From the NCBI RefSeq assembly GCF_964204645.1, contig NC_134028.1:26222345-26286344 (forward strand): a DNA stretch of 64,000 nt. The letters are read 5' to 3'. Positions 32,601 to 58,130 of this stretch are shown piece by piece. Numbering within the stretch: the first letter of the stretch is position 1; every line of letters begins with the position of its first letter. The notes beneath the pieces were generated by a model. That model made no database searches. It was not told the DNA's origin and saw only the letters and a program-made list of their open reading frames with translations. The DNA is from Tubulanus polymorphus. Its lineage: Eukaryota > Animalia > Nemertea. The position numbers and the translations under genes are program-made.

Positions 32601-35600
32601 GGTGGCTATTGGTGGCAGCTTTCTACTCGGTGAAAATATCGCTGACTTGTATTTAGAAGTGTTTTCAAGACTGTAAGGTTTTCTGCAACTTCCCTGGGTT
32701 TATGCTTGATGCAGAGATGCTAGTTTTCCGGAAATATCCGGAATTTCGGAAATTTAGGATCGCCGATGTCAATAAGACCAGGTCAAATACGGTAGTGGCG
32801 GGAAAAAAGATATTCTTCGTCACCTGGATAGCGCGCGGCATAAGAAGGCAGCGAGGGATGTGAAGCACAACGAATGCCTGCCGTCGTATTTTCAGATGAA
32901 AGATGCCGATCGTGACACTGCATCTCCGGCGATGCAAAAACGCCCGTTCTAAATTCCGGAATTTTGGTACTTTGGCCCTAGCATCTCTGTTGATAAATCA
33001 GTCTTGAATTCACTTCGTAGCTTGTGAACTGGTAAATCGTTTTGAGTGTAAAAAGTTTAATAAATCATTGAAAATAAAGGTATAATGTTTCATCATCCTG
33101 GATCCAAATACACAGCTCCAGTTAAAAGTTGATTCTCAAGGCTTAAAACATTGGAAATGAACTAGTTTTAACCTTTCAGTGCATCTACACTGCAGTGCGG
33201 TGTATAAATCGATGATGGATTTTGCTAGTATACCGCATTGCATTGTACCGATGTGATTATTTATTAGGTTACATCTCTATCAAAAGGTGGCAGCACCTCT
33301 TATAGGCAGAACCTAACGGTGACATATCAGTAACTAAGGATACACCGCACGGAGGTGGAATCTTTTAAAATTAACAAATTATCTCCAGCACTTTTGGGTA
33401 TTAATTAGTCAGCGCTGAAAGTCTAGAGAGTCAAATTTAACCTAGAACGGTGGAACTGGGTCCCAGGGCAAAGAATGTACTTGGTTTGATGTGCTATTTT
33501 TTGGTAGATCGTAGATAATATGAAAATCATCAAGAATCTTTCGTCTCAAAGTTTCAAATGAAGTGTTGAATATTTTGGAAAAAATGAATTTTCGATTATC
33601 TCCTAGATTCTTGATTATCTTTATCTTTGTGATGCTCAATTTAAAAACGGTTGCCCGCTGATGAATGGAGATCATCAGTGTTTGACTCGCGATACTAGTT
33701 TATTAATTGTATTAATATATGTTCACTTGCAGCAAAAATGCTTAAGTCATCGCAGCACAGTTCAAACACCAAACTCATCACAACCAACACAAATAATTAT
33801 CTCGTCTAATACCGTTATTATTATTGTCAAGTCGTTTTCACCTAAAAAGATTTTCATGACACGTACTAAAAATACATCGCTACCTCAAATAATGAATAAT
33901 CAAGACGCAGCTCCAGATTTCTCGACTCTTAAAACCCAACGCACATGACGCACACGGAAACACAGAAACAGAAATTGTTTCCGGGCGTATGCATTTATGA
34001 GAAACAAGAAACATAGTTTTGGGAACATTTCCCAGATCAAACACGTTTGCTTCTGTGTGTTTCCCTGCTTTGTGTGCTTTGGACATCAGGAAATTAGTTA
34101 ATATTCAATCCCTTTTTCACTATAGATAGAAAAATTTCAACCGAGATCTCTGGAACTGGGTTCAGAATCATGAAAAATCCAAACACCTGTAATTAACATA
34201 AAACTGAGATAAATTGTCTCTCTTTTTCTCTTGATAATCTTCTCTTCTATCTATTGATTCACTATTCTGCACATGTATCAGTTTTGCTTTCTGGCTTGTT
34301 AGGGACCGATGGGTAACAAGGGCTCGCCCGGTGATATGGGATTACCAGGCCGAGACGGCTCAATAGGAAATCCTGGCCTGCCCGGTCCTCCAGTAAGTAT
34401 CCCGACTATTCACTACGCAATCATCACTCTGCTAACTCGCTATAGCTTTCATTTGAAAAACATAATCAATAAATGAATCACATTTCAGGACGTGTTCTAT
34501 TTTCTGGGATATATGATCATTTTCTCGTTGTTTTCTGCAGGGTGAACCAGGAATACTTCAAATGGAAAATGGAGATGTGAATTTGGTAAGAACCGTTAGA
34601 TTTATTCATTTATTAGACCTGATAAAACATACAATATGATTATAGCTGCGATCACATGAGTATTTTCAGCCCAGCCAAATTAGGCCTGGAACAACACTGT
34701 ACCATACCAAATCATCTCTGTGTGATCGCGGCACCTTGTATTTATATGTACATATATCATCAATTATCAACCTCTAATATTTTGTAGATTCCAGGACCAC
34801 CCGGTCCGTCTGGTCCACGAGTAAGTGCTATTTAAAGTAATCAATTGATAAATCACCCCATAGATTCAAATGCCTTCACCTTGGTGGTAGTAGTGGTGGT
34901 GGTGGGATGCTGCGTACTTTCTGGAACTCGCTCTGCTGAAGAGGCAATATTTCTGTCTTAATGCCACTATGAATCTTGATGAAAGGGAAATCCCACAATT
35001 TGAAGAATGAAAATTTGAAAATTGAGAAGATTATTGTTACCACAACATTCCGCCGTTTACAAACAGTGCCATCATCGCGGGGCAATGTTGATATTACATC
35101 AGTTTTTGTCTGGATCTCAATATTTCTGCTGTAGTTGTTTTACGGCTTTCTAAGCTCATATATTCTAATGATAATTCTGTGTGCCGTTGTTTAGGGACCT
35201 ATGGGATTACAAGGTCCACCCGGTATTAAGGTAGGTTTTCTGTGTGCCCCGAGTGGTGAGTGTGATGCATGTTTCTGAAAATATTTAGTGAAAATATTGA
35301 AATCAAGAAAACAAGTCCTTCGCAAATGAAATAAACTACGAATCTTCCAGTAGATCAGGATCCAGTTTCCATTTGATAAAGAGTTAAATAAAGACATTTC
35401 AACATCACTTAAAACTGCTATTAACAATTGTCATTTGCAAAATGAAATTGTATTCAGGGATCATTGGGAAGACAAGGACAAAAAGGAGAAGTGGTAAGAA
35501 ATCTGCGGAAATGATTGTTTGATTACATAATATCACAATCACTGCTCGTTACGATTCCAGTTACTGAATCCAGTTCTAAATTTATGGTTTAGAGTCAATA

Positions 35601-38600
35601 TAAAGAGTGTGGATCCAGTTCCAGTGATCGCAGTTAAGTTGACTCTAGAGTTGAATTATTCATTGAAAAAATATCTTAACTATGAAAGTCAAGTCTTAAC
35701 CATTCCAGTACGTCTAAACCCTTGTTGTGTGTAAATTGGAGATAAACTTTACTTGTACATCGCATCACGGTGTATTGATGCTATTAGAAATAAGTTTTTA
35801 CCGCACACGGCAATGGGATGGAATTTTTCACTTTCAGATATTAATTAGTCGCCACTGAAAGGGTTATATCCGAACTGTGGAAATGGTTCCAGTTATTCAA
35901 TTCTGATTTAAGATTCAAGATAGAATTTAAATAATTTCATTTCAACTCTAAGTCTATGAGTCAAACCTTAAACCAGAATTGCGGTGCTGGGTCCAGCTTT
36001 TTAGCGCATATCTGCAGGACTCTTGTTCTTAAACTGGAATTCTAACAGGTTGTGTGAGATAAAATACACACGATCTTACTTTCGTTTGAACCCAAAAAGT
36101 TTATCTAAGCACCGAATTCAAATATAATTTTATGTGCACTGATTTACACGTTTTAGAAATGTTTCAAATATAATTAATTGTCACTATCAAATAAAATTGC
36201 CATGCAAAAATAATGAAGAAAAGTTTTAACAAAACGCCAAACATTTCATAATGATAAATACTGAATGACTGTTTAGATTTATTACATGATAAAATTGTGA
36301 TTAAAATGTTTTATTAAAAAATCTGATGAATTAGTGATTGTAGTTTGAGTAGAAGACAGGGATATAACAGATACAGAGTGTTGCACAACCGTCGTTTGTT
36401 ACACGTGTGTTCCAAAACAAAAAAAACGTCTTCGTTAGAATCTTGTCAACCATAAAACAAAACAAAAAAAACATTTTAATTTTAATACCTCTTTTGTTAA
36501 AATTCGTAACTTTTTGTTTAAACGAATATTAAACTTTAAAAGAGAAAAACCCACCAAATTCCGACACAAAAACTTTTAAAAATTTTGGTGGTTGACAAGA
36601 ATCAACTTTATTTTGATAAAAACAACTAAAAACATTTAGAGTAAAATTCGAGAGTTTTGGATAGAAAAATAATCAACTGACTTTACAAATTAATAATTAA
36701 ACAGCCACCCTTCGCTTTATTGAATGTTTTAACAATGTTGCAAGACTGAAATAAACTCATATCATAGTTAACTATTAATTAAACTAATTTCATACCATTT
36801 CAAAATGCCAAATTTCACTTGATAATCAATAGTTTTTGTATGATAGAAACTGGTTTTGAAGATAATTTGGTGTCGCACATTAACAATCAGACTACATCTC
36901 TATATAGACAAATTAGTGCATGGTTCGTTTGCATGTGTCTGAGTGCTTGTGATTCCCTTTCCAACACCCCTTGCCTCCGATTGGCATGTTGATACGAGTA
37001 ATTTCGATCTAGTTTTCAAGAATTTTTTGACTTCCATTCTTTCGTTTGAAATTTATAAAAGGCTATAGTTGGAAACTCAGAATGCAGCCTGTTGAAATTT
37101 TGTCTTCCATTTTCGTCTCTTGTCAGTTTTGTTGCATGTTGCATGGATTCTTGTTTTGACTGACCACTGTATCTGTGAATAACAGCAACTCGCGGTAATG
37201 AGGAAGTTTTGTACTGGTATAGTGTTTGTATCCCTGTCTCCCCTCTTGGTTTGTACAATACATCATCAACGCGCAGGGAATCAATCTCCAAAAAGCGATC
37301 GTCCCTCGGCGACGATTCAAACCTGATGATATCGTGAGACTCTGCCACGTTACAAACTCCTGCCCAAATAGACCCGGCGCGCATATAGTTGCGCAGTTTG
37401 CCGATGAAAAATATTCCAACCCAATCAGATTGCCTGTTTGCTTTATAACTCTTTCAGTGTGAAATATAAATACCATATTGAATGTTAGAAAAATGGCTTA
37501 TAATGACATCACGGCATTGTAGTCAGGAGTACTAAGGCAGTCGTTTAATGCCCATCAGTTGGGAATGCCTGTCCCTATGGGAGTATGAAGAATTGCGGAC
37601 AGCACTGTCCCAGTACAATAGTGAGCCTACTGAGGATTACAGAAATCAACAAACCAAAGAAGATCAAAGTTTTGTTGAATGGAGAATTAAGGTGAAATCC
37701 TTGGTTCATGTTTGAATCCTGCTGAATGAGGAATGTGGCAGAGTCTCTCGATGCTATCAGGTTCGAATCCCGGCCGAGATAGGATGGAAATTCCCAGAGA
37801 TTCTATATTCATGATCGAATCCACACTAGAAACGTTATTACAGATTATTCAGCGATATCGCTAACAAAAATAAATTCAGATATGCGTTTGAAACGCGTGG
37901 GATGATGTACTGTATTTAGAGGGTTTGAACTATGTTTCACTGATCACCCGTCTCTGACTCTATAGGAGTTGAGTCTCTTTAGTCTTTGTCGCTTACTGTG
38001 ATCGATGTTGTCACTAATACACTAGAATCGTGAAAATTGTTTTTTTTTGTGCTGGCATTGTTTTAGGGTAACAAGGGTGATCGTGGCCTGTCCGGATCAA
38101 TTGGATTACCTGTAAGTCTGTATATATACGCATGCCCCTGAGCCCCGTGAAACCCGGTCAAACCTCGTTCCTTGTTCTGTGTTTTCTATGTCTACGGTTT
38201 TTCATATCCTAGCATTCAAAAACACAGTTGGTTTTTCTGATCCTAGGAATGAACAACTCGAACTATTTATTCTCGTTAAATTTTGATGATGGGTATAATT
38301 GCATCTATTATTCGCATTCTTGTTTTATTGTGGATCCTCTGTATCAGTTGCGTTGAGAAAAATTAATGCTTTTATCATCGCGTCACGTCAAGGTTAACAA
38401 TTGATATTCAGCTAAATACATCTTGTTAAATTGGTGCTGTACAGTTTGATTGCTCTATCGAGGTCTCCAGGAGTTACTGCCATCTACAGTATATACGATG
38501 AACTAATATTTCTCGTATAGCCCTGTTTTTGATGTATATTGGACAATTTTTATACTTTATGCGATTGATTTCTCGCTGCATCCTTTTTATAATGATGTTC

Positions 38601-41600
38601 GACTGAGAAAAAATCTTCCGAATGAAGATATACTGATGAATTTCACCTGCAACATAAATCTAATCCGGTATTTTTGATTGAATTCTAAGAAGTCGAACAT
38701 TCCTGTCTTCATTCTCAGAGTAGTAATAAGTGGTTAACCACAATGATCCGGCAACGAGCAATACCTGAATGATGCGTCTGTGAATAAGAGAGTATTTTAA
38801 AAAATCAGCGGAAATTTCTCTACATTCCTTTGCTGTAAAACAGGTTTATAGATTGTCAGGTTGGCAGATTCGAGAGGTCTGGAATTTCAGATTTTTGATA
38901 GTCCGCACATAGTTAGGTCGAAAGATCATTTTAGCTGCACGGCAGACTTCTATCTAAAAAGTGCAAAATAAATAAAGGTTTAGCGTCAACGCATTGTTCA
39001 AATAACAGAGCAGCTAAAATAGGTATTATCATATTACACTGTTTAGAGGTAGTGTGCGCCTGACATTTGGGGAATAAAAATTCCTAATCAATATGTCTGT
39101 AATTTACTGGTTTAACAATCTGGTTAATGGTAATTGTGTATATGACATTGGCATTTATCAAAACAATGGTTTGTAATGATTAAAGGAAAAACTCATAAAG
39201 ATTCTAAACATTCAGGAAAGTGATTTATATCATAAGAAAAAAATGATTGCCTTTTATATAGAAATCATTAAGTTCAGTACGGGTTATAACAGGATATAGA
39301 TACAGTCCCCTGGATCCTTCATATGACATAAACAGAGTAAACTATGGGCGCTTGTATGACAGCAGCTGTCCTTAAAAAGATGCGAGCGCATTAGTCATCG
39401 TTGATAATGTGCTCATTATGTCATATGATATATAGCTAATTCCCAGGCATAGTAACTATACCCATTACCATATCTGAATAATATAGGAACAAACTGATTG
39501 TCACCAATATCTCTGAGAAGTAAATGAGTAAGACTCTGATGCTGTATGTAAATGGCGATATCTTTAAAATCATGTAGCCTTCAGGATTGGAAAAAATCTG
39601 CGTTCGTAAAAAAATATTCGGCTTGTTTGATAGATTGGTGTTAACTTCGATTCAGGGCCGGTTTTGCAGTATTATCTTTAATCCAGGGGTTAACTCGACA
39701 GAAAACGAATTGAGTATGAGTATTTGGGTTCGATTCAATTTCAATTGAGTCGATAGCAATCTATGAAACTGGGTCCTCGGTTTTTCAGTTTCTTAGATGC
39801 CAGAAACAAAGTAAGGGTATGGATACATTGGCAAATAGTGACTTTGGAAAGGGCGGTCAGTAAGTACGTCGATGATCATTCAAGCCAAGCTAAATCTGAA
39901 AAGTTGAAGGTATCCTATAGCTAAAAAGCACTTTGAAAAACTGTGACTACCTTTCAGAGGCATGGTGGCATGCTGTACCATATACCCACTGGTTGTTCTA
40001 AAGAATATACCTAGACACTGCCTGGATTATATCAGCTGATTCAAGTCACGGTTCTAGGATAACCTATTTGTTGTGCGGCCTTTGCACACTGGCCACTATT
40101 TAGCTCTACTTTTTGCAACAACAGACTTTTTTGATTGATAATTTGACATATGATCAGCGATCAAAGGTTTCGGTGATATTTTAAGATGAACAAAGGTTTC
40201 CTTCATCCTATTCAGTAAGTCTATTATAGATAGAACATTTTTGAGGACAGATTGGAAGGCCTTGTTTTAGTGGAGCATCTTACTTCTTTGAGGTCGCGGG
40301 TGTATTTTGAGGGGACCCTATATTTTCAATGGAGTGTTGAAGCAAACATTGGGAAAATGCAAGGAATATTCATTTTTTGTAAATAATGATTCTAAAATGC
40401 ACGAAATACTACCGGTATCTCAAAGCATCCATTTAGGTCCCTGCGACAACAAAACTCTTTCACTAAAGTGCGTCCCCCCTTTCAAATTTCGTAGAATCAG
40501 CCCTGATGATCCAGCACTGATGTCTTATGATCAAATTCTTCAAGCCCTTGTCATTCTTGCTATACTTTAGAAAATTTGATAGATTATGAAAATTGTTTCT
40601 CTGTAAATACGTCAATTCATCGGTTCAGTCATAAGAGACGTCAGAACTGACCTTCCATTCTCTCTCTCCTCACGTGACATGGCTCTGTTACCGGTTTATC
40701 AACCATTCAAATTCAATAACGAAATGTCATATAAAACGTAAGCATTTCAAATCTAAAAGGTTATCTGATAACTCTTTATCTTATTGACGATAGTTGTTAT
40801 AACGTCAATCACCAAAACAACTTCCGATTATGAAAACAAAATGATTTAAATGATTTCTGTAATAATTACCAGGTTTTGTTCAAGGTTGACGTTCTGAGGA
40901 TGTTTTAATTTGGGCCATTGTTATCATAGTAGTGACAATTAACGGTGGCCACTTAATCAGAGAAAAATCAGGGAATTTCTTTTCTTTAAAAAAGTGTAAA
41001 CAGTTTTTATAACTGTGCAACTGGGGCCCTGAATTTTAGACTATGAATAAAATTCAACTGACAACTGAGGAACTGAGCCCTGGAGTTTCATACTTCATTC
41101 CCTTATGAATCTTTGATTGTTTTTTTGTCCTTGATCTTTAATGGTTTACAGGTGACAAATGCTACGTGGTGATATTGAGAAATATATGATTCACTTTAAG
41201 TTGTAAAGAACAATCTAGAAAAGTGCATTGAGAGCGGCTTTTTATATCCGGTTCTTACAACACACAACAAAGCAGAGTTATTCAAACTGTCTCATTGATT
41301 AATCATTTTTTTTACTGAAGAATACGTTATGGAAAAAACCGTTGAATTGAAAGTCACGCGATCTCAATAAAAACTACCGTAAAAATTTATCAGGAACCGA
41401 AAAAAAATGTGGCGAGAGCGAACTTCAAATCTACAGCACCAAATTTCATTCTTCCACTATGTGCACAAACCTCATTTTACATAAACCCGGGTTCTAGACT
41501 TAAATTCTAGGCCTAGAATAATTCGGACCTGGGCTCGGTTTCACAAAAAAGTTAAACTCAAATTTTTGGTGTAATTGCCAATGGTTACTTCATGTTTTCA

Positions 41601-44600
41601 ATGAGGACAACAATTCAAACTTAACCGTTTTAGGCTTAAACTTTTTCGTGAAACTGGGCCCTGGGAGAATTTGTGTATTTATGTAAAATGAGGATAGAAT
41701 TTTTTCCAAACCTCTGTTGATTTTAATAAATGCCTCCACTGTCTTTTTAACCGATGCTTATATGCTTTTAATGCTCGTCGAACTTTAGGGCACCCCTGGT
41801 TCACCAGGCATGGCAGGCCGACCAGGAAAAGATGGGATCCCAGGATCGCGGGTTAGTATAACGTACAATCAGCGTGAAGATTTATGGCCATTTTATCCAG
41901 ATTGCCGATTATATCAAGGAAATGAATGTCATTTTCTGGGGTTCATTTCTCTAAAAGAAAAACAAGTTTAAAGTTCTGTTTTGTATCAAACATTGTTTTG
42001 TGCAAGAAGTTGTAAAAACAAAGATACAATGATTTATGACAAATGTATTGAATTTATTGCCCCAAATTCGACCACAAATACTTATTGTCTCGGTGATTCT
42101 AAATAAGAACAATTTTTATCTCGGTCCAGGGCCAAATTACACAATAAGCAATAAACGATAGCTTCTAAATTCTTTTAATATAAATTCAATTCATGAAGAA
42201 ATTGCATTTGGTTAAGAGCTAAGCTATTTCTATATCTTACAGTCGTGATTTGAGACCAAAATTTGATTAAGTATTAGTTCATTTGAGAGAATTAAAATTA
42301 ATTCATTTGAAAGAATTAAAATGATTTCAGTTCAAATGTTTTGATTGTCGAATCAAATCATCACTTGCGAAACTGTAGAAATCTGGATTGTGGAGCAACT
42401 GAGTCCAGAAATAGAATATGTTCTTTTCATAATATTCTACTGTAAACATTGAAACTAATGACGTAAAATTCAGTTACGTCAATCTTTCATCTTTTATCGA
42501 TCATTGGTATTGATTTTAGAGGTAGATATTGATAATATGGGTGGAGGGAGCAGTTATCGTGTATCTTTTAATTTCTAGTATGAGCTGAATATTTATTGAT
42601 TTACAGTTTTCATGATCTGTAATTGATAGATAAATAGAACGTAGATCTGAACCAATGTCCCGGATTCTAAAAATGTCAAGTTCTTTCTTCATTATTGACT
42701 GTTTGAGCACTAAATCATTCACATGAATCTGGCCTACATTGTATTTGTATAAAACGATTACAGCTATTCTTAGCCTTTAGCCTAAAATCTGACGCCTACA
42801 TTTTGTTCAAAATCCTTGAAAATCTGAGGTCGTTCGTGATCGAGATTCACGTGTTAGCGTTATAGCGTACTGTGTGCAAATCATCCCGAGACAGTTCGGC
42901 ATGGATCTTTAAAAAAACCTGAATGTCGTGGGCCCACCTGCCAGTGCCCTACCCCAGCACTATCTGCACATACACTCTAAAAACATACGCTTTGATAAAG
43001 AGCTCGTTTATGTCCTACTCTAATAACCGAGGCCTTCTTTGTTTTTTGGGGTATTTCAGGGTGCAGTTGGAAACCCCGGTGCTGATGGAAAGAAGGGTGA
43101 TATAGGACCAGCCGGCCCATCGGTAAGAATCACCCTTTATTACCAGAAATTTGCGCACATTTTGGAGTCGTCAAATATTCAGTTTCCTTTGACTGGACGG
43201 ACATAGTTAATACTCTGATTATCAGTTTACCCCCAATGGACTTTGGTTCACCGTGGACTCAACTAATTACATAACTAATTCAGGGCACTCTCGGGGTAAC
43301 TGGGTCAGTATAATATTTGATCCAAATATTTGAGTACAAAGTTCAAAGTTCGATGATGCCCTGATGGTGTTCAGTCCTTCAGATGAAACTAAATTCATTA
43401 TTTAGGATTTTTACGATGCATATAACATTAATTTTATTTGATTATGTTGATTTTTTAATGTATTTCGCGATCAATGTAAGCATCGTTCGTGAGCCCTCAG
43501 CTCGTGAAGGCGTTCGTAATGTGTTAATTGTCCTGTGTCTGATTTTTCTTTAGTTTAAGCTTGTTTTTATTCTGTGTCGTGTACTGTGTATTTATTTCTG
43601 TGTATTATTGTGTGTATGTAGGGTAGAGATGGTGTACCTGGTTTACAGGTAAGGAAGGTTCTGCAGCTAGCCCATTTCATTATTATCAATTTCTCAGATA
43701 ATCTTAAGCTTTAATACTGGCACTAGTTGCTCAAAAGTTGGCTAGAGTTAAGTTAACCATTGCATATATACCATAGAAACCAGGGGCGGATGCAAGGAGA
43801 AGGTACGCACCCCCTACCCCCCCCCCCCCAAAAAAAAAAAAATGCCCTGAAATATTACAGAAAAAATGAAATAGATTAAACTGCTACCTACAAAAGTTTA
43901 TAGTCATAGTCTGGTTCTCTGTATTTCCAAAAATGAGTTATTGCTTCTTTCAGGTTGCTCTTTTATGTATTTATGATATACCCTATTTTGGGGTTAGCAC
44001 CCCACCTTGAGTCAGACCCTACCATCCGTTCTAGAAATAATGCAATTTTGATCGTCACTTTTTAAACTATTAACCTGGTTTACTTTAACCATCTTTTGAG
44101 TGACTGACCCTTGTACAATAAAACAAGAAATCTACGTACAATAAAACCTCGGCTTACTGGGACATGGCCAGCTCGAACTTTTGATTAAATTGGGCAAGAA
44201 TTAAAATCTTTTTAATTTCTATCTTAGTAATCTGTTTCGTTACTCACAGTGGTCGTAGTCAGTCTCAGTAAGGGTGAGGTTTACTGTAAATACAAAGTCT
44301 TCTTCAATGAGAGGTGTTTATTATTGTATATCTGTAGGGATTATTAGGCGAGAAGGGTGAAGCCGGAGCCAGGGTGGGTTCATGTTTTCGTTTCATTTAT
44401 TTTTCATTTTTGTGGCGATGCTCTGTGCATGAATTCACTGCAGGCCGAATATCAGCTTTATTACTGAAATTAATGAATAAATCTGTCTAAAAATTATATA
44501 TATATATGTTCGGGACAAATACGCTGTTTTCTGCATGGACTGTTTATATTTGGGTGTAAGCACTCATGTTGGTTATTGAGTAATATGAACTAATTTGTGT

Positions 44601-47600
44601 TTTTCACACAATGCTTCACACCTTCAGCAAATGGTTTTACTTTCACTACATTGTAATAATTGCACATTGAATATGATTACGTAATATTGCAATAAGATAT
44701 TAATGGATATTCAACCAGTCGTAATAACTGTAATAACAGCAGGACTGGATCTAGGAAATTGGAAGGCAGGGGGGGGGGGTTGGTTCAGAAGAAAATAAAA
44801 GATATATCTCAGACGTAGCAGCTATATCAAAGGCGTCTATCGGGGTTCTACCCTCTATTTTAGATGAAATAAATGCAAAAACATAAGATGTGTCAAATTG
44901 CAGGTTTTAACAATCTTAGTCCTGATGAAAAGGGCCACTTCAGTGGGAAGGCAAGGCTTGTAATATTTGTTACTTTTCTGTTAAATTCATGGCAAGGTTT
45001 TTCTTTCCTTCCACTTTTTGTTTCTATGCAATCTTGTTCTTTGTTGATTGAGATTGACGATCATGACCGATGAAAAGTGACTGACTAAGAATCTTTTTAG
45101 CGCACGTTCACAGCCAGCCACTACCACCTCCTTACCTCCTCCGCCCCTCAACCCTGTAAGCCACCATACCCTGATTCCCTCATTTTTGTTCAGTTTGTTC
45201 GATATATACGATATCTCCCTCGTTTGTTGTTTCGAGATACGACATAAAATGAATAATTATTCTTTTGATAAAACTAATCGTTTGATAAAAACCGTCTCAA
45301 GTGTTCGGCTCGATATTGAAACATGGCGGCACGTAAACTCACCCTGAAGGACTCCTCAGAGGGTCATATCAATTATATCAATGTCATTTTAGTTTCCAAA
45401 GTTGAAAAAATTGAAAATCTAAATTACCATTATTAAAACGCTATAACCATGATGGATGATGTTAGATTTTACGTTATTATTGTGGGATTCTCTTAATATT
45501 GAAAAATGCAGCAGTTTTATTTATTGTTTTTTCTAGGGCACTCGCGGCAGAAGAGGCAAAAAAGGACCAAAAGGCGATAAAGGAGATCAGGTAGGGCAGA
45601 TCGGGGGCTGGTCGATGATCAATTCATAGCTGCTGCATTAAACAGGAATACTGGAATATAAAGTGTATGATTATTTCAATGTCTATGTCCATATAGGGAA
45701 TACCCGGTCTAGATGCCCCTTGTCCATTGGGCCCTAATGGACTACCGCTACCTGGTTGTGGTTGGAGACCTCCCCCGGTAACGTTTTTAAAACTCTTCCT
45801 ATTGGCATGAAAACGGTTTACGATAAAGCATGATAGAGATTCATTCGTATCCTAGTGAAGCATGTTGTGAGAAGGCTTTTTTCATAATTTATCTGCATAG
45901 ACTACACGCAGGACGTAGCCTAGACAATTACTGAGTCCCCCGGTAAGGCTACATCTAGTTCAAGTTTGTTAACATTCTTTGAGATATGTTAAGAATGACA
46001 AAAACATGTTGTTTATATGCTTGCTGTTTATCTGTTCGTTCTATCATTTCTGATCTGATCCGGAATGTTTTCGCCGGTGTGGAATGCCTTATCGCTTTTG
46101 AAACCTTGAATTCATGAATTTGTAGAAGTTTCGCAGATTGATGCATGACTTTTGATTAACAAATATCGTTGATTATGTATGAAAAATGTTCAAATGTTTG
46201 TATAGATGATATTACGTTATCAATACAATGGTTATAACCCATTGACCAATGACCAAAAATAGGTTGAAAAATAATTCTACCTGATCCAGGGCTCTGAGCT
46301 GTTATAGATGTAGGCCAAAATGACTTGCGCGTGACGAGGGGGATTTCCTGTTTATTGTTCATAGATATCGGCTTTAAGATTGTTTCATCACAGATATTGT
46401 GATCTTACTGATTTATTCGTAGTTCATCAATAAAAAGTGCACCCCTCACCCTGAGTACAGGACCTGCAATTGAGGGTAGAATTCCTTATTCATACATTTG
46501 CTTTATGAATCTGAGAACCAGCAGCAGCCCTGGGTGAACCTGTCACTATTTCCAGGTCGATATGTGATGAGATATCGAAAAAGTGCATTGGCACAAATAC
46601 CAGGTGTGCGTGCATGCGGAGTGTCCCTGATATCGTACTGTGTACTGGATTGATCTACTTCGTTCTTGTTCTACTGTATCCTCCACTCTTGTTTTATTGA
46701 AGCCTTCCGATATATTGACTGACTTTATTTTTATCTCGTGTCCTTGAGCTAAATGCTAGTTAAAGAATAATAACAGCTGAAAAGATCAAACGTAAAGGAT
46801 TTGCGTTATGAAGAATTTTCTTTCCTTTGATAGAAATTACTAATACTACTTAATATTTTTTTGCAATTTGTTTGACATCTGCAAGTGGTAAATCAGGGTT
46901 TACACAGCTTGCAGTAACTGTCTGACAGTGCCTCGTCCTGCAATATCTAATCGGCACTGATAATAGTGACTAGTATGTCATATATCAGACAGAAATATGA
47001 TAGTAATATCCAAAGGAGAATAGGTTACTGTGTTTAGATCATGCGAGTGGGGCTGCTCTCAAAAAATTCATCTCATTACTTTGAAATGAAGTGTTGAAAA
47101 GTGAAGGATATTTTCAAAAGGGGGCCTTGCTTTAGCACCCAAAGCAGCCCTCACTCGATCTGCACCTATTATTATAGAAAGTGCTCGATAAAACATGTTG
47201 TGATATGATAAGGAATCTCTCCACAGGGATAAATGAAGTTTTGATAATCTCTCTCAAGTTCAGCCTCATTGACTTGGTAATAGATGGAACTAGATTTTGT
47301 AATTACCCACATTGTCTCATGAATTCGGGAATATTTCAAATTTTAGTGTTACACCGTAAAATAGGTACCTGCAATCCAGGGGTGGATCAAGGGGGAACTT
47401 ATGAGACTTGTACGAGTCCATCAAATTCTTATGAGTACCTTTTTCATCATCTCAACAATGAATAGAAAATTGGTGTATTCCTGTACGGGAGTACGTTTAA
47501 TATTGCCTTTTTGGACATAATGAAAAAGCACCCTTTCTGCAATCCCGTGTAAATATTTATGTATATGAGTAAAATGCGGTAACTAGCAAATAACTTGAGT

Positions 47601-50600
47601 CGGAATTGAAGAAAAAGTCGTTCTACTCAATAAGGTAAGCATGATATTTCCACCACGTAAACATTCTGTGGTATATTGCTGACACATATTTCACTGCTAT
47701 TAAAAGAAACTGTGTTATTGGCACTTGTTGTAGGTCGATGAGAACGAAATGGTTTCCTTCCCATTTCCTTATTTCCGACCGTTATATTTACAAAGTGTTT
47801 ATACATGTATATAGAAACCTATAGCAGTGAATGTAGTTACAGCAAGTTGTTCTCTTCTTATAACGCATGAATAACTGCTTTATTAAAAATGCACTGCTTT
47901 CATTGCGTAACCAACAGATATTTATTCATTGCACTTGAAATGTTGACAATTCGATCGTCCGTCATATGATATGATGTGTATGTACCATATGTTCACAGAC
48001 GTCTGTCAACTAATGTCTCGTGAAAATCAAATTGTTTGTCTTTAGGAAATAGAATCTGTGCGCAAGCTGTTTCTATAAACACCGGCAAAAAAAAATTCAT
48101 AGACGTTTTACTTGTACAGTAAACCTTAGTGGAATCACTCGGAAATATTTGCATATTGCTTCTAATTTATTCACGTTATCAAAGTTGACAGACGCCAATA
48201 TTCAAATGTTTGATTCATAGATGCTAGTCACGATCACACATTTTTTACCTGGACCAACCGCCTAAAAATGGGTCCATGTCTTTTCGCTAAATTTGGTTCG
48301 TCCAAAAATGTCAGACTACCTATGGCTCATATCAAATTTTAGCACTGATGAAATTATGTAAATGCTAATGACTCCACAGCATTGTTTTGATAGGATTTTA
48401 GTAACGAGTCAGTGGTTTACATGTGAACTCTGATAATCTAAATATGACTGTGGATGTGGTCTGAGCCTAGTCATCTCATTGTGATTGTGGCTATTGATGA
48501 ATTAGACGATAATCTTTGTCTTATTGATGAAATTGCTGATGAAATCACGCGCACTAGTTGCACAAAACACCAGCCACTGCACAACAGACAGCACTGTTGC
48601 ACTATAAGCAGATAAAAAACACTCTTGTGTCAACTTCCAAAGCAGTCTGCTCAAATTACATTCTTCACCCTTGTTGAGAGGTAGGGCACAGACGGTGCCG
48701 TCCCCGTAACAAGTGCCCTCCAATACATACCACTAATTACAGAGTGACCTTCAGTAAAATACTGATTCTATCGCAAATGTTAGTTCTCAGAATAGAGAAA
48801 TCATGTTTCTTGAAGCACAGATATTTATATCGTTGTCTTTTGCCCCTCTTACTCTTCTTACTGGTATATCAGATAGTTTGTCATATTCACCACCAGTTTG
48901 TTTCAATATTAGTAAAGTTTCAGCAGTTCGTTTTTCCAGTTCAATTTACTAAGTGTAAGTCGTCGCTGTCGAAGTCATCATGACTGATTCTATTTCTAAA
49001 ACGGTACTATATGAGTTTATAGAAATATTTCAATGAGAAAATACTGGAAATTCTTTTGCTTGATTATCAAAAGACGCGCTTCATTTCAGTCTAGTTTTAT
49101 ATAAAACATTGATTTGATTTCATGGAACACTCGTCGCTTGCGACGTGACTGCGTGCAGATGTTACCCGTTATTTAAAAAACACCAATACGTATATTCTAG
49201 TAAAACTAGCAATAATAAAACATGTTATAAACATGCGGTTTTTATTTCCAGTGAAATTGTCATTGATATCGCGATAACGTTCGTCGGATTTATTTATTCT
49301 GAATGAGTCAACAATTCGTCATTAATATCCTTGATCGATGATAATATATTTTATTGTACCTATTATTACAATTACTCTACCATTGATGAAACAGTACGAG
49401 TCGGTGTTGTCACAACGACATATAAAGAATCCCACGAGAATGTTGTAACGATATAAAGAGAATGCCACCACACTAATAAAAAGAAGGATAAAGTCCAAAA
49501 AGTTTCTTTAAAGCTAATAATTTATTGATTCGAAGACGAATATTATGTTTTAGTCAAAAACGTTGAATCAATAAATTATGAGCTTGATGGAAACTTGATG
49601 AAATTTACTCTGTTGCGGAACTGCTAAAGACTGCTTTGGAAATGAAAAATTATCATTTTGCTTCTCTTTTCTTAATTTTCTGGCTCTGAGCACATATTAA
49701 CACCAAATTACGTAGACTATCATCAGAGGTGCAGCTAGCTGGTCAGTGATTATCGATATGATCTGATAATGTTTTTTCTCCTGACCTGACCGCAGTGTGT
49801 TTATTACCATTTTATTAGGGTTTTATACCAGATATTCCTGATCAACCATGTCCTCTAGATGATAAAGGATTACCAGTTAAAGGTTGTCCCTATGTAACCA
49901 TGCTTAAGGTAGGCTTTCATCCTTCTATATCCACATTAAACATAAGAAAAACCAAGACCGTAACTGTCCGCCCATACCACATTTAGTGAATGCCCAAGTT
50001 GAACTTGCCCAAGATTTGGCCAAATTGACCTTGCGCGAACCACCATTAGAGGCTGCCCCTATCAAGTGACCCATATTCTACCCATCTACCCCCCTCTGGT
50101 AATTACTGCATAGTTCCCTGTTCCTCGGCAAGTTGCTTAAAGTACGTTATTATTGGAAAACATAATGTGTAAGATAAAACCGGCACTTTTTGACCGAGAA
50201 CGTCTTCGGGGATGTTTTTATTCCGTTGAGTTCGTCATGGTTTTCACATTCACAGTGCCTGGATAGAGAGAGAGAGAGTAAACACGGCCATCAAAATGTT
50301 ATCTATGAGTGCAGAAGAAAACACAGTGCTTTTCACTGGAGAGCACGATCTGTCATCAATAATACATGATGCAACCCCCGTTCCTAGAAATGTCAAGGTC
50401 GATAGTGTTGTTATTGGTGTATGGCAGCACGTAGGCCTGCAGACGAGGGTCCCCAAAAACTAGATCGCAATAAGTACATTTAATGTTATAAATATATAAT
50501 TGGAGGCCATGTTTTTGGCTTTAAATGATAATTAATGATTAGATAATGATTATAATTATCCTTTCATATGAAAAATTATATTCAAACTCGATCATCAATA

Positions 50601-53600
50601 TTGAAAGAATCGTTTTCGATCACGGAAGAATGTTCCGATTTACGCGATATTAAATCGAGCAAAAGCTGACACACATCTTCAATTGATGATTAATACGCTT
50701 CTTATGTCTGGGCTTCTGATATAAAAAAGTGACAGGGCTTCGATCGCGATATCATTGTGAAATAAACTATGTGTATTATCAAATTTGATATCGCTAAGAT
50801 AAATAGTGATTGTATATATATATATATTTGGAGACACCACTGACTGTAAGGTCTGGATATCGAGATGAGACGATAAAAATGAAATAGTAAAATCTCTTGA
50901 TCGTGAATAATGAACAGTGACACATTTTATGAATTGGTCATCGTGAAATATACGTGTAATTCATTCAATAACAGCTGATTCCTGTGAAACATTAACAAGC
51001 TGATGCAATACATATAGCAGTAAACATCTAAGTCATGTGAAAAAGCTTGAATACAGTAAACCTTGCTTTACTCGTATATGGCTAAATAATTTTTCTTAGG
51101 TATTTTTTTATCCTTACTTGGACAGTTTTGCCAGTCCGAGTTAGGTGAAGGTTACTGTAGAAAATCTTTTGGATTGTAAGCGGTCTGGGCTGAAATCTTA
51201 GCATAAAATTCTGCATTTCCATTACTAAATTGCAAAAATTACATGACCTCAGTAAAATATATCAGCAAATATATTTATGATGCGATATTGTCAATTATTT
51301 GTTTGTCATGTTTTTATCATCATCAGTCAATAATTATTATGATTAATTAAGATCAATTTTCATATTCGGAATGATAAATATTTTGCTAAAATTACATTCA
51401 AATAGTTGTGGAAGCAATTACATAGTAAATCATCTAGTTAACATTCAGGCTATTTTTGGATTGCATCAGCTTCATCATATATGTTGTGCTCGAGAATAGT
51501 CGATAGATTCCTGGAAATCAATGATTTCACGTCCCTCGACTCTGCAACGATATTTTTAATTGAACTCTAAATGAACTCATTCAGTCTGGAGCAAATATTT
51601 CCATCAGCTGTTTACATGTTTCCTATAGTTCCTAGAAACACCAGGCTATGCGTTCATGTTCATGCCGGCAAAAACCTGTTTCTAGCACAGCAGCGTGTTG
51701 ATAGAAAAATGAGCTTTGTATGAAGAAATCCCTGGAAAAATATATTCTTGACATATAGTCATATACGCATATTTAGGTCATTTTTGTAAAAACGTGTTAA
51801 AAAGAGATCTCAAGTTGACATGTCTAGTGCTATGCTTGTCAACAGACATGTGTAGTATTCTGCATGTCAACATCAGCAAACATTTTTCTCAGTCACGTTG
51901 GTTTCAAATGAAAAGTGAATTGTAGTTCATACTCTCATGCTAAAGCTAGAGTTATTCTATAAAAATGCAGATAAGAGCTAGTGGCCCGAAAAAGAGTTGA
52001 TATATGCTTTCATTTCTAAAGATGTCAAATGCCAATGGTTTACTACTACTGTTTACAGGATAAATATTCTGATAGATCAATTATGAAATTTGCGGAATGT
52101 GAAAAAAAAGGAACTAAAAAAATGTGGAACTTGGATTTGAAAGGGGGTCTTCCGCACCCATGACCCTCCTCAATCAATATCTTAGATATTTTGAGATTTT
52201 TGATATTGCTATAGCATTTTTCGATTTCTCATAAATCATAATGATTATATCAATGATTATCAATGATCAACCTTGATAAGTAAATTACTGAAATTATCAA
52301 AAAGACTCATGATATAAATACAAGTGATTTACTAGTTGTTTTTATTATGATTTATTTATTGGTCAGGTATTTAACACTTTACTCCAGCTATTTGTCACTT
52401 TCAGCGGTGAATAAAGCAGTTATTTCTTTATCAACGTGCTAATTATTGATCCAATAACTAATCCCCTTTGATCAATTGTCTGAAGTTAATCCTCTGATAT
52501 CAGATTTATCTCCAATATTTCACCTGCCAACATCACTATGTAATATCACTTTCTTTTGTTCGTAGTTACTGAAGTATATCTTCTATTTTTGCAACATTTT
52601 CGGCGCTTGGGACAAAGACATTTTCTTTTGAGTTTCAATATACTAGACTTTGACAACTTGCAGTGCCCCTTATCTCGGATAAGCCGTACTACGACTTATC
52701 AGTTGCCTTATTACCTTACCGGTTACCCAATAACCCCTTTATCCCTGTAGCCCTTTAAAACTATTATGTATTTAGAGCATTTGCTGTAATTCGAAAGTTT
52801 TTGCTGATTTCCAGACATTTCAAACCTCAAAGTACCCCTATTACTGTTTTGGTAAAGCCCTATCACCATTTATCAGTAGCCTTACCTGTTGCCCTACAGC
52901 CCTTTCAGCCCTGTAGCCCTGAAACCAATTTCATTGTAGCCCTGTGCTTTCAATCATAGGTGCTTTTAACCTCGATTACCAAGAGATAGCGATCATATTC
53001 GATTTAAAAAAAGCTCTTAACTAATTATGAATAATTCTGCTTTTCTTTCTTCACTCTTTGCTGCACTTTTTCACACACTGAATGTCGTGTCTGCACCTCT
53101 CAACACAAACACAGGGCGTAGGACCGACGTTCCCTCCCTGTCCTATAGACACTAACGGTAAGCCTAATAGAGAATGCGTGAAAAGACGAGCGAAATGGCA
53201 GCGAAAATGGTCAAAAGAACTCGATAAAATGGAGACAGAGGTATGTACGTATAAAACCTGATTGGAATGGAATCCGTGGAACTAATAACGTCATTGATTT
53301 AGATCCAAGTGGTCAAGGGTTCATAAACAGTCAGATATGGGACTGATTGAACAGTTGTTTACTCAGTTCTTGGCACTCAGTACCAGTTCTCAGAGTCCTC
53401 ACCATAATTCTTGATTGTGCAAATTATACACAATCACAAAAGCGTTTTTGACCCGGACCAACCATTCATTGGTCCGACCCGAAACAGACCAGGCCCGAGC
53501 CAAATTTAAGATTATTCTATCAGAATCTGGAAGTGACTCACCTCATGTACCTCAGATTTATTTTTGATAGTATGTTAATAATGAGTGAGTAATTTACACA

Positions 53601-56322
53601 TGAACGCGCTCGCTAATTAGGCAAATTTTGACTCTGGGTCTGGTCCAACCAGTTTGACCCAGGCCCAAATGGTCTCAGAACGTTTTAAGAGTCCATGATT
53701 GTGAAGTCATTGATGGGAACGAAACCTCTGATACCACGTGAACATGATATATGGTGCCACCTGTCAGGAGTATGAGCTGACCGTACATCATGTCCTGATC
53801 ATTTGAGTTCCTTGAACACTCTTATCTTTGTCTCAGAATAAGTTCATATCGATATTAGTTCGATAAGTTCAAACATATCATTCATAAGATCATTGTCAAA
53901 CATCAAGAAATCTATCAACAGGGAAATTAGATTAATGCATTCGCATAATATGCATGTTTTTAATGAGAATATATTCATATTACAGTAAAACGAGTTAATT
54001 ATTTTTGCATGGATTATCATTTATACTTTTACAGTGAATATTTATTGCTATTGTCAAATTCAGTGAACATTTTGTTTAAATAGTTTTCATATTTATTTCG
54101 GTATGTGACGTGAATGTATCGGAATGAGTTTCATTCATTCATACATCGGCTTAATTAGCAAACACTCATCTAACTGGGGGAGGGGTACGGTTCATAAGCA
54201 TGAATATTAAAATTCATAAAGTCATTAAATTATTTTGAAAATATTGAAATTATTGAAATTGATAACTATTTATTCCATTGCTCTGTATCACTAGTATCAC
54301 CCAGCACTAGTACATGACTCAATGTGAACTTACCCTGCAAACATTTTCTCGAGGCTCGCTGTAGCTGAACAACAAATTCTCTTCAAGGTCTCTTAAGTCT
54401 AGGCGGCAGATTTCTTCGAAGTTAGTACATTATTTCAGGAACACAGATAATAGGAGTCCCTTGTTATCAACAACTGGTCAGTCGATAGCGTTTCAGTTCA
54501 ACGGAGTCAGTCTATTTCCTGGAAACTTTCAACTGAATATCAGATCGAATTTCTATGTGAAATCATGACCTGCAATTGACTATCTTTTCAAAGTTATAAA
54601 TCATTGAAATATGGATGGATTTGATTATAACCTCTGAATAGAAAACTAGAAACTTTTTATTCTATTGAAAACTATAACAAAATCTCCAAAATCTCTTCTC
54701 TATATAAATATTAAGGAAGATGATTTCATAAGAAATTCACTTTTTATTCCAGTATTCCTTGTTATTCTTTTCTAGAATTAATTCTTTTTTTGTAATAAAA
54801 GTTCATTTTCAAGATATATTATGTATTTATTAAGCATGTTTGCATGATGCATGTATTTATTTTGTTACTAAACCAGGGGCTGCCCGGATTCGATGCTCCG
54901 TGCCCTGTCGATGAAGAAGGGTTACCCATAGCCGGAATTCCAGGTTGTCCCGGCCCCGGCGACACTAAGGGGGGTTTCAGTTCTAACAACAGACGTCAAA
55001 GGATTCGAATAAATCAGGTAAAGACTGACTGGGATTGGTGAAGTTGTAAGAATGGGGGTCGTAAGGATTGACTTTCTGCAGGAAGGTCGAAATCATCAGC
55101 AATAAACGGAATTCTAGTCGGCTGTGCCTAACATTTGGATTTGGGGAGGCAGCAGAGAAACCCGAAAAAGGGCAGTTCTAGCAAAAAGGGCACTTCTCCA
55201 AAATTAACAGCCGTGCTGATGAATAGAATTTAGTTTTGAAAAGGGAGATCATTGGGACCCCCAACCCCTCCTGGTGATGCCTTGCTGGGTAATTTTTATA
55301 CGGTGAAATTGATCCTCAGAGTTCCGGATCGCCTTCTGCATGCGAAAGTTAACGCTTTATAGCGCATGCAATCTTATATATTTTTTGAGAAAACAATTCA
55401 GACCGATGCACCGTATCATTAAAACGGTTATTTATATAAGGCTCTGTTGTTAACTACAACATATTATACGCAGAAAAACTGTATGTAAAGAAATGGCAGA
55501 TTTATCTGTGGGTACAGGTGCAACGCGCGCCTTCCTTTTCTTACCTCATCTCTCTTACTGACTGTTAAATCTTGAGCGATTACCTCGGTAAACCACTCAC
55601 CCACAGCCATCAAATAAGTGTTTTGTTGATTTCTCTTCAAGCTAAGAATATCTGTTAATTGTTTATTGCTTCATAAACACTTCTAGGTAAAAAACGAAAA
55701 GTGTCATCTCCAAGCAGTAAACATTAACTGGGATATTGGTCGAATAACTTGAAATAAGTCCTGACTTCATGTCAAAATCGAGGACCAGTTTCAATGCTTT
55801 CAAGTCGAAAATTTATAATCGAGTTTGATAAATTTAGGACCTGTTTTAATTTAAGAAATATTGATTGAAGTTTTTTTTGGATGGAAACCCGTGGAATGAC
55901 AGGGGCGGATTTAGACTGTATTTAGAGCGGATTTAGAATTTTAAAGTGCCTTTTTATTTTTTCTCTGTATTAAGATTTGCTGTTGTAACCACCTGAGATA
56001 CACAATAGATATTTGTCCTAAATATGTAACCTATGTTTCTTGACTAAATGCCTCTCAGAGATGCTCAGAAAGCTCTTAAATGATAGTAAAATTTCGAAAA
56101 TGAAATTTGCTGATATGCCTTTTCGCCCTAAATTAAGAATATATGCCCTTTTTATTGGTCGACATGGTCACAACACGTCCCTGGATCCACCCCTGAATGA
56201 TCCTGCATGATGTTACAAATAAGGCCGAATTAACTTGAACTTTATAGTGCCACTGATTCTGCCACTGATTGTGGGAAGGTTTTAATCAATTGTCTTTCGA
56301 TTAATTTTTATAGGAAAACTGA
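11657..56322 (+). CDS. Membrane-associated collagen with interrupted triple helices (MACIT; collagen XIII/XXIII/XXV-like), type II transmembrane
   Basis: Exon 11657-11920 (short cytoplasmic N-terminus, [22 protein letters not shown], coiled coil); exon 12267-12333 (furin site RAKR, GCTCPPG). Gly-X-Y/NC exons: 21334-21404, 21815-21850, 22557-22592, 22833-22859, 22942-23001, 23467-23502, 24642-24677, 24918-24953, 25122-25193, 26143-26211, 26949-27020, 27309-27407, 27488-27514, 27686-27721, 27809-27844, 27929-28135, 28693-28818, 30683-30754, 31470-31565, 32463-32534, 34303-34392, 34541-34585, 34788-34820, 35195-35230, 35458-35493, 38067-38111, 41789-41851, 43060-43122, 43622-43648, 44338-44373, 45537-45590. 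NC4 exon [18 protein letters not shown] at 45697-45777; terminal GAA AAC TGA at 56314-56322. Confidence 0.93.
13576..13822. mobile_element. MITE with CAGGG(G)CGGAT TIRs and 5-bp TSD (hAT-like)
   Basis: CAGGGCGGAT...GATCCGTCCTTG flanked on both sides by CTATG. Confidence 0.75.
18261..18468. repeat. 17-bp minisatellite (caacccgtgcctgctc-type)
   Basis: About 12 tandem copies; explains the overlapping repetitive ORFs in the track. Confidence 0.95.
18665..18780. repeat. 29-bp tandem repeat x4
   Basis: aaacaatactcgttaaccagatagacgtg x4 with no spacers. Confidence 0.95.
23211..23381. mobile_element. MITE family with GCTGCGATCACA-type TIRs and GGCCCG/GGACCA core
   Basis: Related copies near 25320-25440, 26688-26863, 34645-34732, 48229-48330 and 53428-53700. 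Confidence 0.6.
29591..29701. mobile_element. MITE with GGACCCAGTTCCACAG-type TIRs
   Basis: ggatccagttccatagtt ... aactgtggaactgggtcc; related termini near 33446, 34150, 35610, 35873, 39655-39776. Confidence 0.7.
29797..29967 (+). CDS. Candidate Arg-rich cassette exon of the collagen
   Basis: TAG|...AAG|GTACAA, 171 nt, phase 0/0, stop-free: [57 protein letters not shown]. Long AG-free pyrimidine tract upstream. Confidence 0.65.
32712..32989 (+). mobile_element. Internally deleted hAT-like DNA transposon with transposase Zn-finger remnant
   Basis: Perfect 12-bp TIR CAGAGATGCTAG; flanks TTGATG/TTGATA; internal frame [24 protein letters not shown] resembles the N-terminal zinc finger of hAT transposases. 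Confidence 0.7.
33933..34083. mobile_element. Dispersed repeat/MITE (AACGCACATG ... GAAAC-rich)
   Basis: Similar copies near 22050-22190 and 29211-29350. Confidence 0.55.
37730..37800 (+). mobile_element. tRNA-derived SINE-like fragment (B box GGTTCGAATCCC)
   Basis: gtggcagagtctctcgatgctatcaGGTTCGAATCCCggccgag; diverged inverted copy at about 37300-37350; no complete cloverleaf seen. Confidence 0.45.
41470..41693. mobile_element. Nested MITEs
   Basis: Outer perfect 16-bp TIR CCTCATTTTACATAAA; inner element 41531-41661 with GGGCCCAGTTTCACGAAAAAG-type TIRs. Confidence 0.75.
43781..44033. mobile_element. CAGGGGCGGAT-family MITE
   Basis: Same TIR family as 13576; flanks GAAAC/GAAAT. Confidence 0.6.
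45697..45777 (+). CDS. Collagen NC4 exon variant A
   Basis: [27 protein letters not shown]; canonical MACIT C-terminal motif; AG/GT, phase 0/0. Confidence 0.92.
49819..49908 (+). CDS. Collagen NC4 exon variant B
   Basis: [30 protein letters not shown]; TAG|...AAG|GTAGGC; phase 0/0; CX11C retained. Confidence 0.85.
53115..53240 (+). CDS. Collagen NC4 exon variant C
   Basis: [42 protein letters not shown]; CAG|...GAG|GTATGT; phase 0/0; CX11C; distant branch point-like ACTAAT near 53020 with an AG-free tract. Confidence 0.8.
54877..55017 (+). CDS. Collagen NC4 exon variant D
   Basis: [47 protein letters not shown]; CAG|...CAG|GTAAAG; phase 0/0. Confidence 0.88.
55900..56195. mobile_element. 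CAGGGGCGGAT-family MITE with 5-bp TSD
   Basis: CAGGGGCGGAT...ATCCACCCCTG flanked on both sides by AATGA. Confidence 0.8.
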
Positions 56323-58130
56323 TGAAATTCCTGTCCGTATGAAATTGTGATGTCTGTTGAATCTCGCAGGGGAAAGTGTGTGAAGCCTGTGGTGTAAATA
56401 CTTCAGTATATGTATACAGCTTGCTGCGGTTCATAAAAAAATCACACCAAGGAAATGGATAAAGAATTCTTTGGTATCAACAAAATTTGTCCTGTGTAAA
56501 AAATTAGAGTTATGAAATAACATGAAAGAAATTCTGAGCTGCCAACTGTTCCAAATGTTCAGTATTTGTTACTACTCTATTACGAGAAATACTGATTTGA
56601 TTTGTTTGATGTCACTAAAGGTCTTACTGTTGGTTATTGAATAATTTGAACATTTTCTTTCAATGAAATATTACAAAAGAAAATTCAATTTGTTACTGAT
56701 AGCAGTTTTCAGAGGTTGGCAGCCCTGGACATTCGATGATAAATGAACTAGGCCTATATGTAAAGAGCAGTTTTTCTGAATTTTTGGTACGACTGATGAT
56801 GTTATATCACAGAGTCTGCTCATATCAAACAGGATTCAATATAGAATATATTATTTGTTTCGTATAATTTTATTATGCTGTAAATTATGTGTATGTTAAT
56901 ACATATACACAAGAGAAGTATATACATTACTTATATAAGATATAATGCATATATGTTATAGCTATAAACCCTTATATATATATATAGATAAATATGAATA
57001 TCTTATATATATGTATGTGTATAAAATTATTTGTGTAATCCTCGTAAAAAATATCTGAGATTTGTATTTGATTTTTGTTGTCATGCAGTAAATATATCAT
57101 AAATAATGGCTACATCAAAAGTAAAAAAATGATGCAACTTGATTGGAAAAATATTGATACTTTAAAGATGTTTAAAACGTACCTGAGTATTGGAGCCTTG
57201 GATTTGTGTTTTCTCGCGTGCACCGACGATTAATAACATGCTTTGACTAAAACTAAACATCCGAATAATTTCAATACTAAACAAATATGCAGTGAGTGTA
57301 TGAAATAATGGAAAACTTTCTACGAGTCTATTATCATTAAAAGTTAGGAGTAATAAATATTAATTAGTGAATATTGTTAATTACGGATGTGTGAGAGACC
57401 GTAAAATTAGTGTTTTACCAATTTCTCGATCGTGCAGTTGATACCGGTATCTGTCGGATACACAATGTTTCAAGCGTTAATGAACAAACTGTTTGGAGTC
57501 GATGAATGTGTGGCGATGCTTAGTTTGTACTTGTTTCATATTGTACACATCATACATGGCTAGTTTAACATTACAGATTTTGTCGGCGTTTTGTTTAAGA
57601 GTTGTCGTTATTTCGGACGTTCCCGATATTTAAATCTAAACTAGTTTGAAACAGATTTCGAAGAGAAGAAAAACCATCGTTTGTAATATGTAAAAGATTA
57701 TGTTTATCGTAGTATTTTTCCACCTGATTGAACTTTATACCCCCGGGCAGCAGGTGTTACATAATAATAGCGTTGATTCTAGGAATTAACCTTTAGTCTC
57801 TGGGTGCTTAATCCCGCTATTGCCTCGCCTCATTCACATACTGGCTACGTTCGAGAGGTTGCCATTGATAAAGCTCTGAATTAATCGAGGACGACGATGT
57901 GAAAATGAAATCCATATAATAATGTCCTTACTGTATTAAGAGCTAGAAAGAGTTATGGCTTTCTAATTTATTTTTACTGGCATGTCTTTGTGCGCCCGTC
58001 GTATTTTGCGTAAGCAGAAAGATTTTTGTTTAATTTCAACCGATCTGCTGGATACAAACGTGTTAAAATGTAAATGAATGAAATAATATACGACAAATAA
58101 AGATATCATTTTTGCCATTTGTAATATAAA
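56323..58130 (+). other. Probable collagen 3'UTR with poly(A) signal
   Basis: AU-rich tract after the stop; AATAAA at 58096-58101 followed by GT-rich sequence near 58138. Confidence 0.5.

Follow-up and report, generated by a model that had tools for sequence, protein, structure and literature searches.

The collagen gene in a stretch of 64,000 nucleotides from the palaeonemertean Tubulanus polymorphus (contig NC_134028.1, positions 26,222,345 to 26,286,344; hereafter the window) is a complete MACIT collagen, and its C-terminal NC4 motif is present in four paralogous exons, A to D. In the sole sample that informs on RNA, the main spliced form joins the last collagen exon to D. We propose that the four exons provide three alternative tips of the ectodomain, namely A alone, B and C in series, or D, a reading to which we give a probability of roughly 0.63. 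The diversity of tips is then probably three, not of Dscam scale.

The gene is read on the forward strand, as are all of its features given below. The first coding exon (11657..11920; ATG at 11657, donor GTAAGT) encodes a short cytoplasmic tail, a transmembrane helix at about 11720-11779, and a juxtamembrane stretch. The type II topology of this helix is predicted from simple hydropathy: the exon has a single hydrophobic stretch, residues 22-41 (window hydropathy 2.51), preceded by an N-terminus of 21 residues. An exon at 12267..12333, ahead of COL1, carries a CxC and the juxtamembrane sequence RAKR (12291-12302), a furin-type site predicted from the motif only; by eye, the juxtamembrane sequence looks heptad-like. 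More than 20 interrupted Gly-X-Y exons extend over 21334..45590, with interruptions in 26949-27020 and 28693-28818. One of them matched Pfam Collagen at 1.6e-17, and the last (45537-45590) is entered at 45537 by junctions in sequencing run X4. The same run showed optional use of 43622-43648 and paths skipping 44338-44373. A shared last coding exon (56314..56322), with an AG acceptor and an X4 junction from D, encodes Glu-Asn-stop and leads into the 3' UTR. The gene thus displays a predicted type II topology, an interrupted triple helix in the ectodomain, a two-Cys C-terminal motif, and a juxtamembrane furin site (as a motif). We assign it to the MACITs because the three criteria used by Tu et al. 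apply to it (PMC4678570).

Several other features were recorded in the window. An RTP801/DDIT4-like exon at 59443-59940, downstream of the collagen gene, shares 99% identity with a protein of Tubulanus polymorphus. At 62629-64000 lies a Suf/CSTF3 gene (Pfam 1.5e-176) of raised GC content, possibly intronless, in which a single frame continues unbroken for 457 codons or more. Long, repetitive open frames resembling tandem repeats occupy 2928-3512 and 18248-18685. High-copy repeats, with X1 depth in the thousands, occur at 41500-42033 and 55918-56985, among other places inside the final intron of the collagen gene and in its 3' UTR region.

Downstream of the helix lie exons A (45697..45777, 81 nt), B (49819..49908, 90 nt), C (53115..53240, 126 nt), and D (54877..55017, 141 nt). 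A preliminary description, made from the sequence, had placed these four exons and the Glu-Asn-stop exon at these positions and had called A to D stop-free, of phase 0/0 and beginning with Gly, all of which was borne out. AG acceptors precede A to D and the exon at 56314, GT donors follow A to D, and the length of each of the four is a multiple of three, so that any combination keeps the frame. Exon A is a canonical MACIT NC4 ending in GCGWRPPP, B and D are variants, and C, which has a basic tail, diverges most. As described beforehand, the translations have the spacing CX11C in A, B, and C and CX14C in D. The predicted tips comprise 29 residues with two Cys (A), 74 with four (B plus C), and 49 with two (D, which has an R-x-x-R motif near its end).

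That the exons arose by duplication, as had been suggested, is supported by all 6 of their 6 pairwise alignments, each better than 2000 shuffles (p <=0.0055). A degenerate DNA pattern, present in 0 of 100 shuffles, matches A, B, and D. The PCP-type consensus attributed to the whole set is loose for C, which has G-K-P and is missing the second Gly. A profile scan of the window found no fifth NC4 copy. Pfam gave no family for any of the four exons (0/4), and a PDB search gave one chance match (E 0.33). When exon D and the first exon served as queries for homologues, 4 and 54 candidates came up, respectively, none of which was scored, and an Atlas search with the first exon returned low matches only.

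Four runs, X1 to X4, cover the stretch. We treated X4 as RNA-like from its GT..AG joints alone; it consists of contigs from one run of one study, and expression is poorly reflected by the depth of contigs. The four X4 joints listed on the array comprise three splices, all GT..AG, and one 35-nt gap that is not a splice. The first splice (45590>54877, contig depth 853.6) runs from the last collagen exon to D and skips A, B, and C; the second (55017>56314, depth 907.3) joins D to the end exon; and the third (49908>53115, depth 35.9) joins B to C in series. Among these four joints, none leads into A, out of A, into B by splicing, or out of C. We did not count the missing X4 cover on A as evidence, because contigs drop rare variants. 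No exon-exon joint was found in X1 to X3 among the 15 of 56 joints listed; an X1 contig is continuous across 49502-55185, and X1 has none of the three X4 splice joints.

Alternative use of the exons, as anticipated in the preliminary description, is therefore observed, since the collagen>D joint leaves out A, B, and C. The two joints expected there that connect D with the last collagen exon and with 56314 are both present, but so is the joint of B to C. With collagen>D and B>C together, X4 fits neither a four-way exclusive choice nor the splicing of all four exons in series. The latter, named beforehand as an outcome contrary to the proposal, is ruled out for the X4 sample by collagen>D. The idea of four independent, mutually exclusive tips is not supported, given the serial joining of B and C and the lack of an outstanding selector for C described below. 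The D path does carry one exon per mRNA; the B>C joint is serial, but occurs in a contig that retains intron sequence.

The 106-nt intron ahead of A is predicted to form a docking/selector system with two segments. We tiled this intron (12 tiles) against the 10.5-kb array, the docking tiles being chosen after the scan. Segment 1 (45610..45640) pairs with a putative B selector (49727..49758, -92 to -61 from the B acceptor) at -33.7 to -34.4 kcal/mol, 9.7 better than the next site. Segment 2 (45640..45666), which ends about 30 nt 5' of the A acceptor, pairs with a putative D selector (54737..54764, -140 to -113 from the D acceptor) at -31.6 to -31.7 kcal/mol, 12.3 better than the next site. In a search for inverted repeats, 45639-45668 proved complementary to 54735-54764, and the D pairing has a perfect core of 14 nt that is unique in the window. 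Neither the energy nor the gap was reached by any of 95 dinucleotide shuffles per docking tile (means -23.3 for segment 1 and -19.6 for segment 2, sd about 1.5), the margins being 6 to 8 sd. Natural control tiles, 69 in all and taken from 23 other introns, likewise stayed short of both -31.6 and a gap of 9. Over the whole 44-kb gene, both selectors and the docking intron are reciprocal best partners. A helix between segment 2 and the D selector would loop out A, B, and C, and so predicts exactly the collagen>D junction that was observed.

The tiling of the 106-nt intron against the 10.5-kb array produced no outstanding selector for C, which fits C coming after B. The Dscam-like mechanism envisaged earlier is supported by the candidate docking/selector pairings ahead of B and D. 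In a classical cluster several selectors compete for one identical docking sequence; the B and D selectors would instead use 45610-45640 and 45640-45666, which are adjacent. Three further candidates were rejected. The pairing of 45613-45628 with 50928-50943, considered as a C selector, reaches -22.6 kcal/mol, an energy that shuffled sequences also attain, and is 2.2 kb away from C. For the B acceptor paired with the intron that follows C, 13 of 50 shuffles did as well as the -22.1 obtained, and two X3 variants fall in the arm of this pairing. The best downstream docking in the D-end intron (-26.8) is within the range of the control tiles. The gene scan revealed no downstream docking pair to account for skipping after A or C.

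Clusters of GCATG flank the first and the last of the four exons, at the sites where the preliminary description had reported them. Three follow A (45805, 45828, and 45860, within 45805..45864; +28/+51/+83) and make up a predicted RBFOX enhancer; three precede D (54834, 54842, and 54849, within 54834..54853; -43/-35/-28) and make up a predicted RBFOX silencer. At the gene's own GCATG density, the Poisson P is 5e-4 for the cluster after A and 8e-5 for that before D. In the gene, the motif is biased to the sense strand (72 copies, against 30 on the opposite strand), and of the 23 small collagen exons in 21815-45590, 8 have GCATG 19-54 nt downstream (P 2e-4). Together with the optional exons in X4, this suggests a wider RBFOX programme across the helix.

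The opposite polarity at A and D, from which an A-versus-D switch had been forecast, recurs in one other locus, L003, an animal locus in which the last collagen exon is followed by a canonical NC4 exon and, 1.1 kb on, by a variant terminal exon. There, GCATG stands at +29/+56/+61 after the canonical exon and at -44/-24 before the variant. Among the other 55 locus rows (AG before the motif), which are partly redundant and come from a profile scan that took in loci of 55% GC or less only, none has three downstream and one has two, and two upstream occur in 0 of the 53 with flank. The L003 arrangement, although a single locus, is independent support for a switch between A and a variant. An equivalent of the outstanding docking pair was not found in L003.

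A profile search with A to D returned 124 proteins, 123 of them with the NC4 motif; the top match (P0003), an unrelated repeat protein, was set aside. Exon A shares a median of 20 of 24 residues with 122 of the protein matches, including a collagen XXIII-like scallop protein. We therefore regard A as the canonical exon and B to D as derived; being so conserved, A is also unlikely to be dead. The 16-residue core of B, by comparison, agrees at 13 of 16 positions with the variant exon of L003, against 9 with its own A and at most 11 with the 123 protein matches. This suggests that the NC4 duplication is older than the split between the Tubulanus and L003 lineages, convergence being the alternative.

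In two further loci, L017 and L030, a terminal exon of the variant type directly follows the last collagen exon of its own paralogous gene, and in canonical-type genes (L004, L013, and L043) no second exon was found within 7-10 kb downstream. This looks like a gene duplication that may have resolved the choice, and a variant exon alone in its own gene is what would be expected if the exon types were alternatives. The orthology of the exon type in L017 and L030 to that in L003 is indicated mainly by the shared terminal position and by the ending in L030 and L052, the core being intermediate. In one group of animal contigs, at least five distinct NC4 exon types occur in separate genes (L004, L013, L017, L018, L019, L030, L033, L051, L063, and others), implying several MACIT paralogues in an invertebrate. 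MACIT-type proteins are also present in the scallop Ylistrum balloti and in Seison nebaliae (P0084 and P0113), which extends MACITs in Spiralia past the 2015 survey. An Atlas search with the scallop protein led to a collagen cluster of 50 members, mostly nemertean. In the metagenome scan, which extended over 25 of 64 parts, 121 of about 310 stretches were returned; many were bacterial sequences matched by chance, and most were too short to hold a second exon.

The four exons might instead be loosely combinatorial cassettes, used for example as A+B, B+C+D, or D, so that a tip would hold a single Cys loop or several, with the pairings merely biasing the outcome. Such use would agree with the serial B>C joint, with a frame that never shifts, and with a scan that found no element to enforce downstream skipping. 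It would also agree with a RefSeq isoform of Ylistrum balloti (XP_060063382.1) in which the canonical repeat is followed serially by a second CX11C repeat with a B-like end, so that exclusivity is not universal. However, the best-supported path contains D alone, selectors lie ahead of B and D only, the opposed placing of GCATG around A and D points to a switch, and the variant exon of L003 is terminal. We consider free combination unlikely, while giving it some weight.

A second possibility is that only D, perhaps with A, is productive, B and C being duplicates in decay. A lariat, an intermediate of splicing, or a non-coding transcript of the intron would then account for their junction. The B>C contig itself lends this some substance. 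It begins at 49034 in the intron, leaves the B acceptor unspliced, and retains 785 nt of intron with an in-frame stop just ahead of B; it may represent a retained intron, an intermediate, an internal start, or a non-coding RNA. In addition, collagen>B and C>end are missing among the X4 joints listed, and C combines the greatest divergence with an acceptor of weak score, although this acceptor is used in the RNA. We take the contig to be the product of a minor path, collagen>B>C>end, that was fused to pre-mRNA after assembly had dropped its weak junctions. Assemblers may drop weak junctions beside a strong path, and the implied exon depth would then be about 97-155. The contig stops one base past the C donor, which suggests a splice fork at that point. 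X4 has 13 substitutions in the 785 intronic nt, whereas the 217 exonic nt have none (P about 0.03, a weak result because the variants are clustered). The depth of 35.9 at the start of the contig (49034-49818) compares with about 3-13 for other intronic contigs. Decay is further opposed by the absence of stops from B and C, by their preserved frame and both Cys despite divergence, by the strong selector that B has of its own, and by the match of the B core to the L003 variant exon, closer than to any of the 123 proteins or to its own A. We therefore judge it improbable that B and C are dead. Strict four-way exclusivity with a single exon per mRNA, as in Dscam, is very improbable: it is favoured by paralogous phase-0 exons, a main path with D only, the predicted docking intron, and 16 nt between B and C that are complementary to segment 1, but the B>C junction exists and those 16 nt pair no better than shuffled sequence, far from C.

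We thus favour three tips, A, B plus C, or D, and picture their choice as follows. The 3' segment of the docking intron would pair with the D selector and loop out A, B, and C, while the 5' segment would pair with the B selector and loop out A. The two helices would adjoin and cross in a pseudoknot topology, and probably compete, for steric or topological reasons. In cells with active RBFOX, GCAUG downstream of A would favour A and GCAUG upstream of D would block D, yielding the ancestral tip A; neurons or muscle may be where this happens. Since MACIT helices fold from their N-terminal end (PMC7848082), one trimer could contain chains that differ in their tips. That the NC4 tip has a binding function is conjecture. 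The system is real and probably regulated, and its mechanism has firmer support than the sequence-only description could provide. More tentatively, and with somewhat less than even confidence, we suggest that an RBFOX-run switch between canonical and variant NC4 is ancestral in lophotrochozoan MACITs, and that it became a three-way choice with a two-part docking intron in Tubulanus and was divided among separate paralogous genes in other lineages. If so, the most conserved motif of the family, still without a function, would be a regulated and exchangeable recognition tip that varies by cell type and within trimers.

The MACITs comprise collagens XIII, XXIII, and XXV, C. elegans COL-99, and Drosophila CG42342/CG43342 (PMC4678570). 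The type II anchor, the juxtamembrane furin-type site, the interrupted helix, and the two-Cys C-terminal motif described in that article are all found here, and exon A ends in the WRP-type motif given there for invertebrates. The same source reports that alternative splicing of collagenous exons is frequent in the family, that collagen XIII keeps its one conserved C-terminal motif across all splice variants, and that this motif is highly conserved across bilaterians, its role being stated as unknown. In contrast to the MACITs treated there, the Tubulanus gene has the motif fourfold, its best-supported RNA omits the canonical copy, and it belongs to a nemertean. Tu et al. (2015) did not find MACITs in Lophotrochozoa (PMC4678570); contrary to that absence, our gene adds Nemertea to their range, and database evidence adds a mollusc and Seison. 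MACITs have a guiding role for motor axons and neuromuscular junctions (PMC7848082), and many alternative exons of COL25A1 are documented (PMC12669723). The accessible portions of PMC12669723, PMC12562938, and PMC11945623 yielded no duplicated NC4, and the open-access literature no report of one, nor of docking-site splicing in a collagen or in Lophotrochozoa. Invertebrate C-terminal sequences in the supplements of PMC4678570 may be relevant to the novelty of the array, and isoforms of the gene may already stand in automated annotation, such as the 50-member nemertean cluster.

The Dscam exon 6 cluster and the 3' region of PGRP-LC (PMC6071210 and PMC6191721) share with the Tubulanus array tandem duplicated exons, upstream docking, and selectors located just upstream of the exons; like the array proposed here, PGRP-LC has three 3' variants (PMC6191721). 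Whereas those genes, as described in these two articles, use a single docking site, we predict two adjoining segments with one selector each; one option would be a two-exon unit, and the first exon, A, would need no selector. Dscam has thousands of variants and the present gene about three, and the pairings in Dscam and PGRP-LC are backed by conservation and mutation, those in Tubulanus being predicted from sequence. In C. elegans egl-15 and unc-32 7a/7b (PMC3585155), (U)GCAUG likewise stands beside duplicated exons, and RBFOX typically acts as an activator when its sites lie downstream and as a repressor when they lie upstream (PMC11874969). Unlike in egl-15 and unc-32, the clusters here stand downstream of the first exon and upstream of the last, a reversed polarity, and predicted long-range pairings accompany them. 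A gene with swapped motifs supplies natural variants for testing what the NC4 motif binds. Its mechanisms are of known kinds; measured against the open-access literature, what is new is their setting in a MACIT tip, the two-part docking intron, and the two-exon option.
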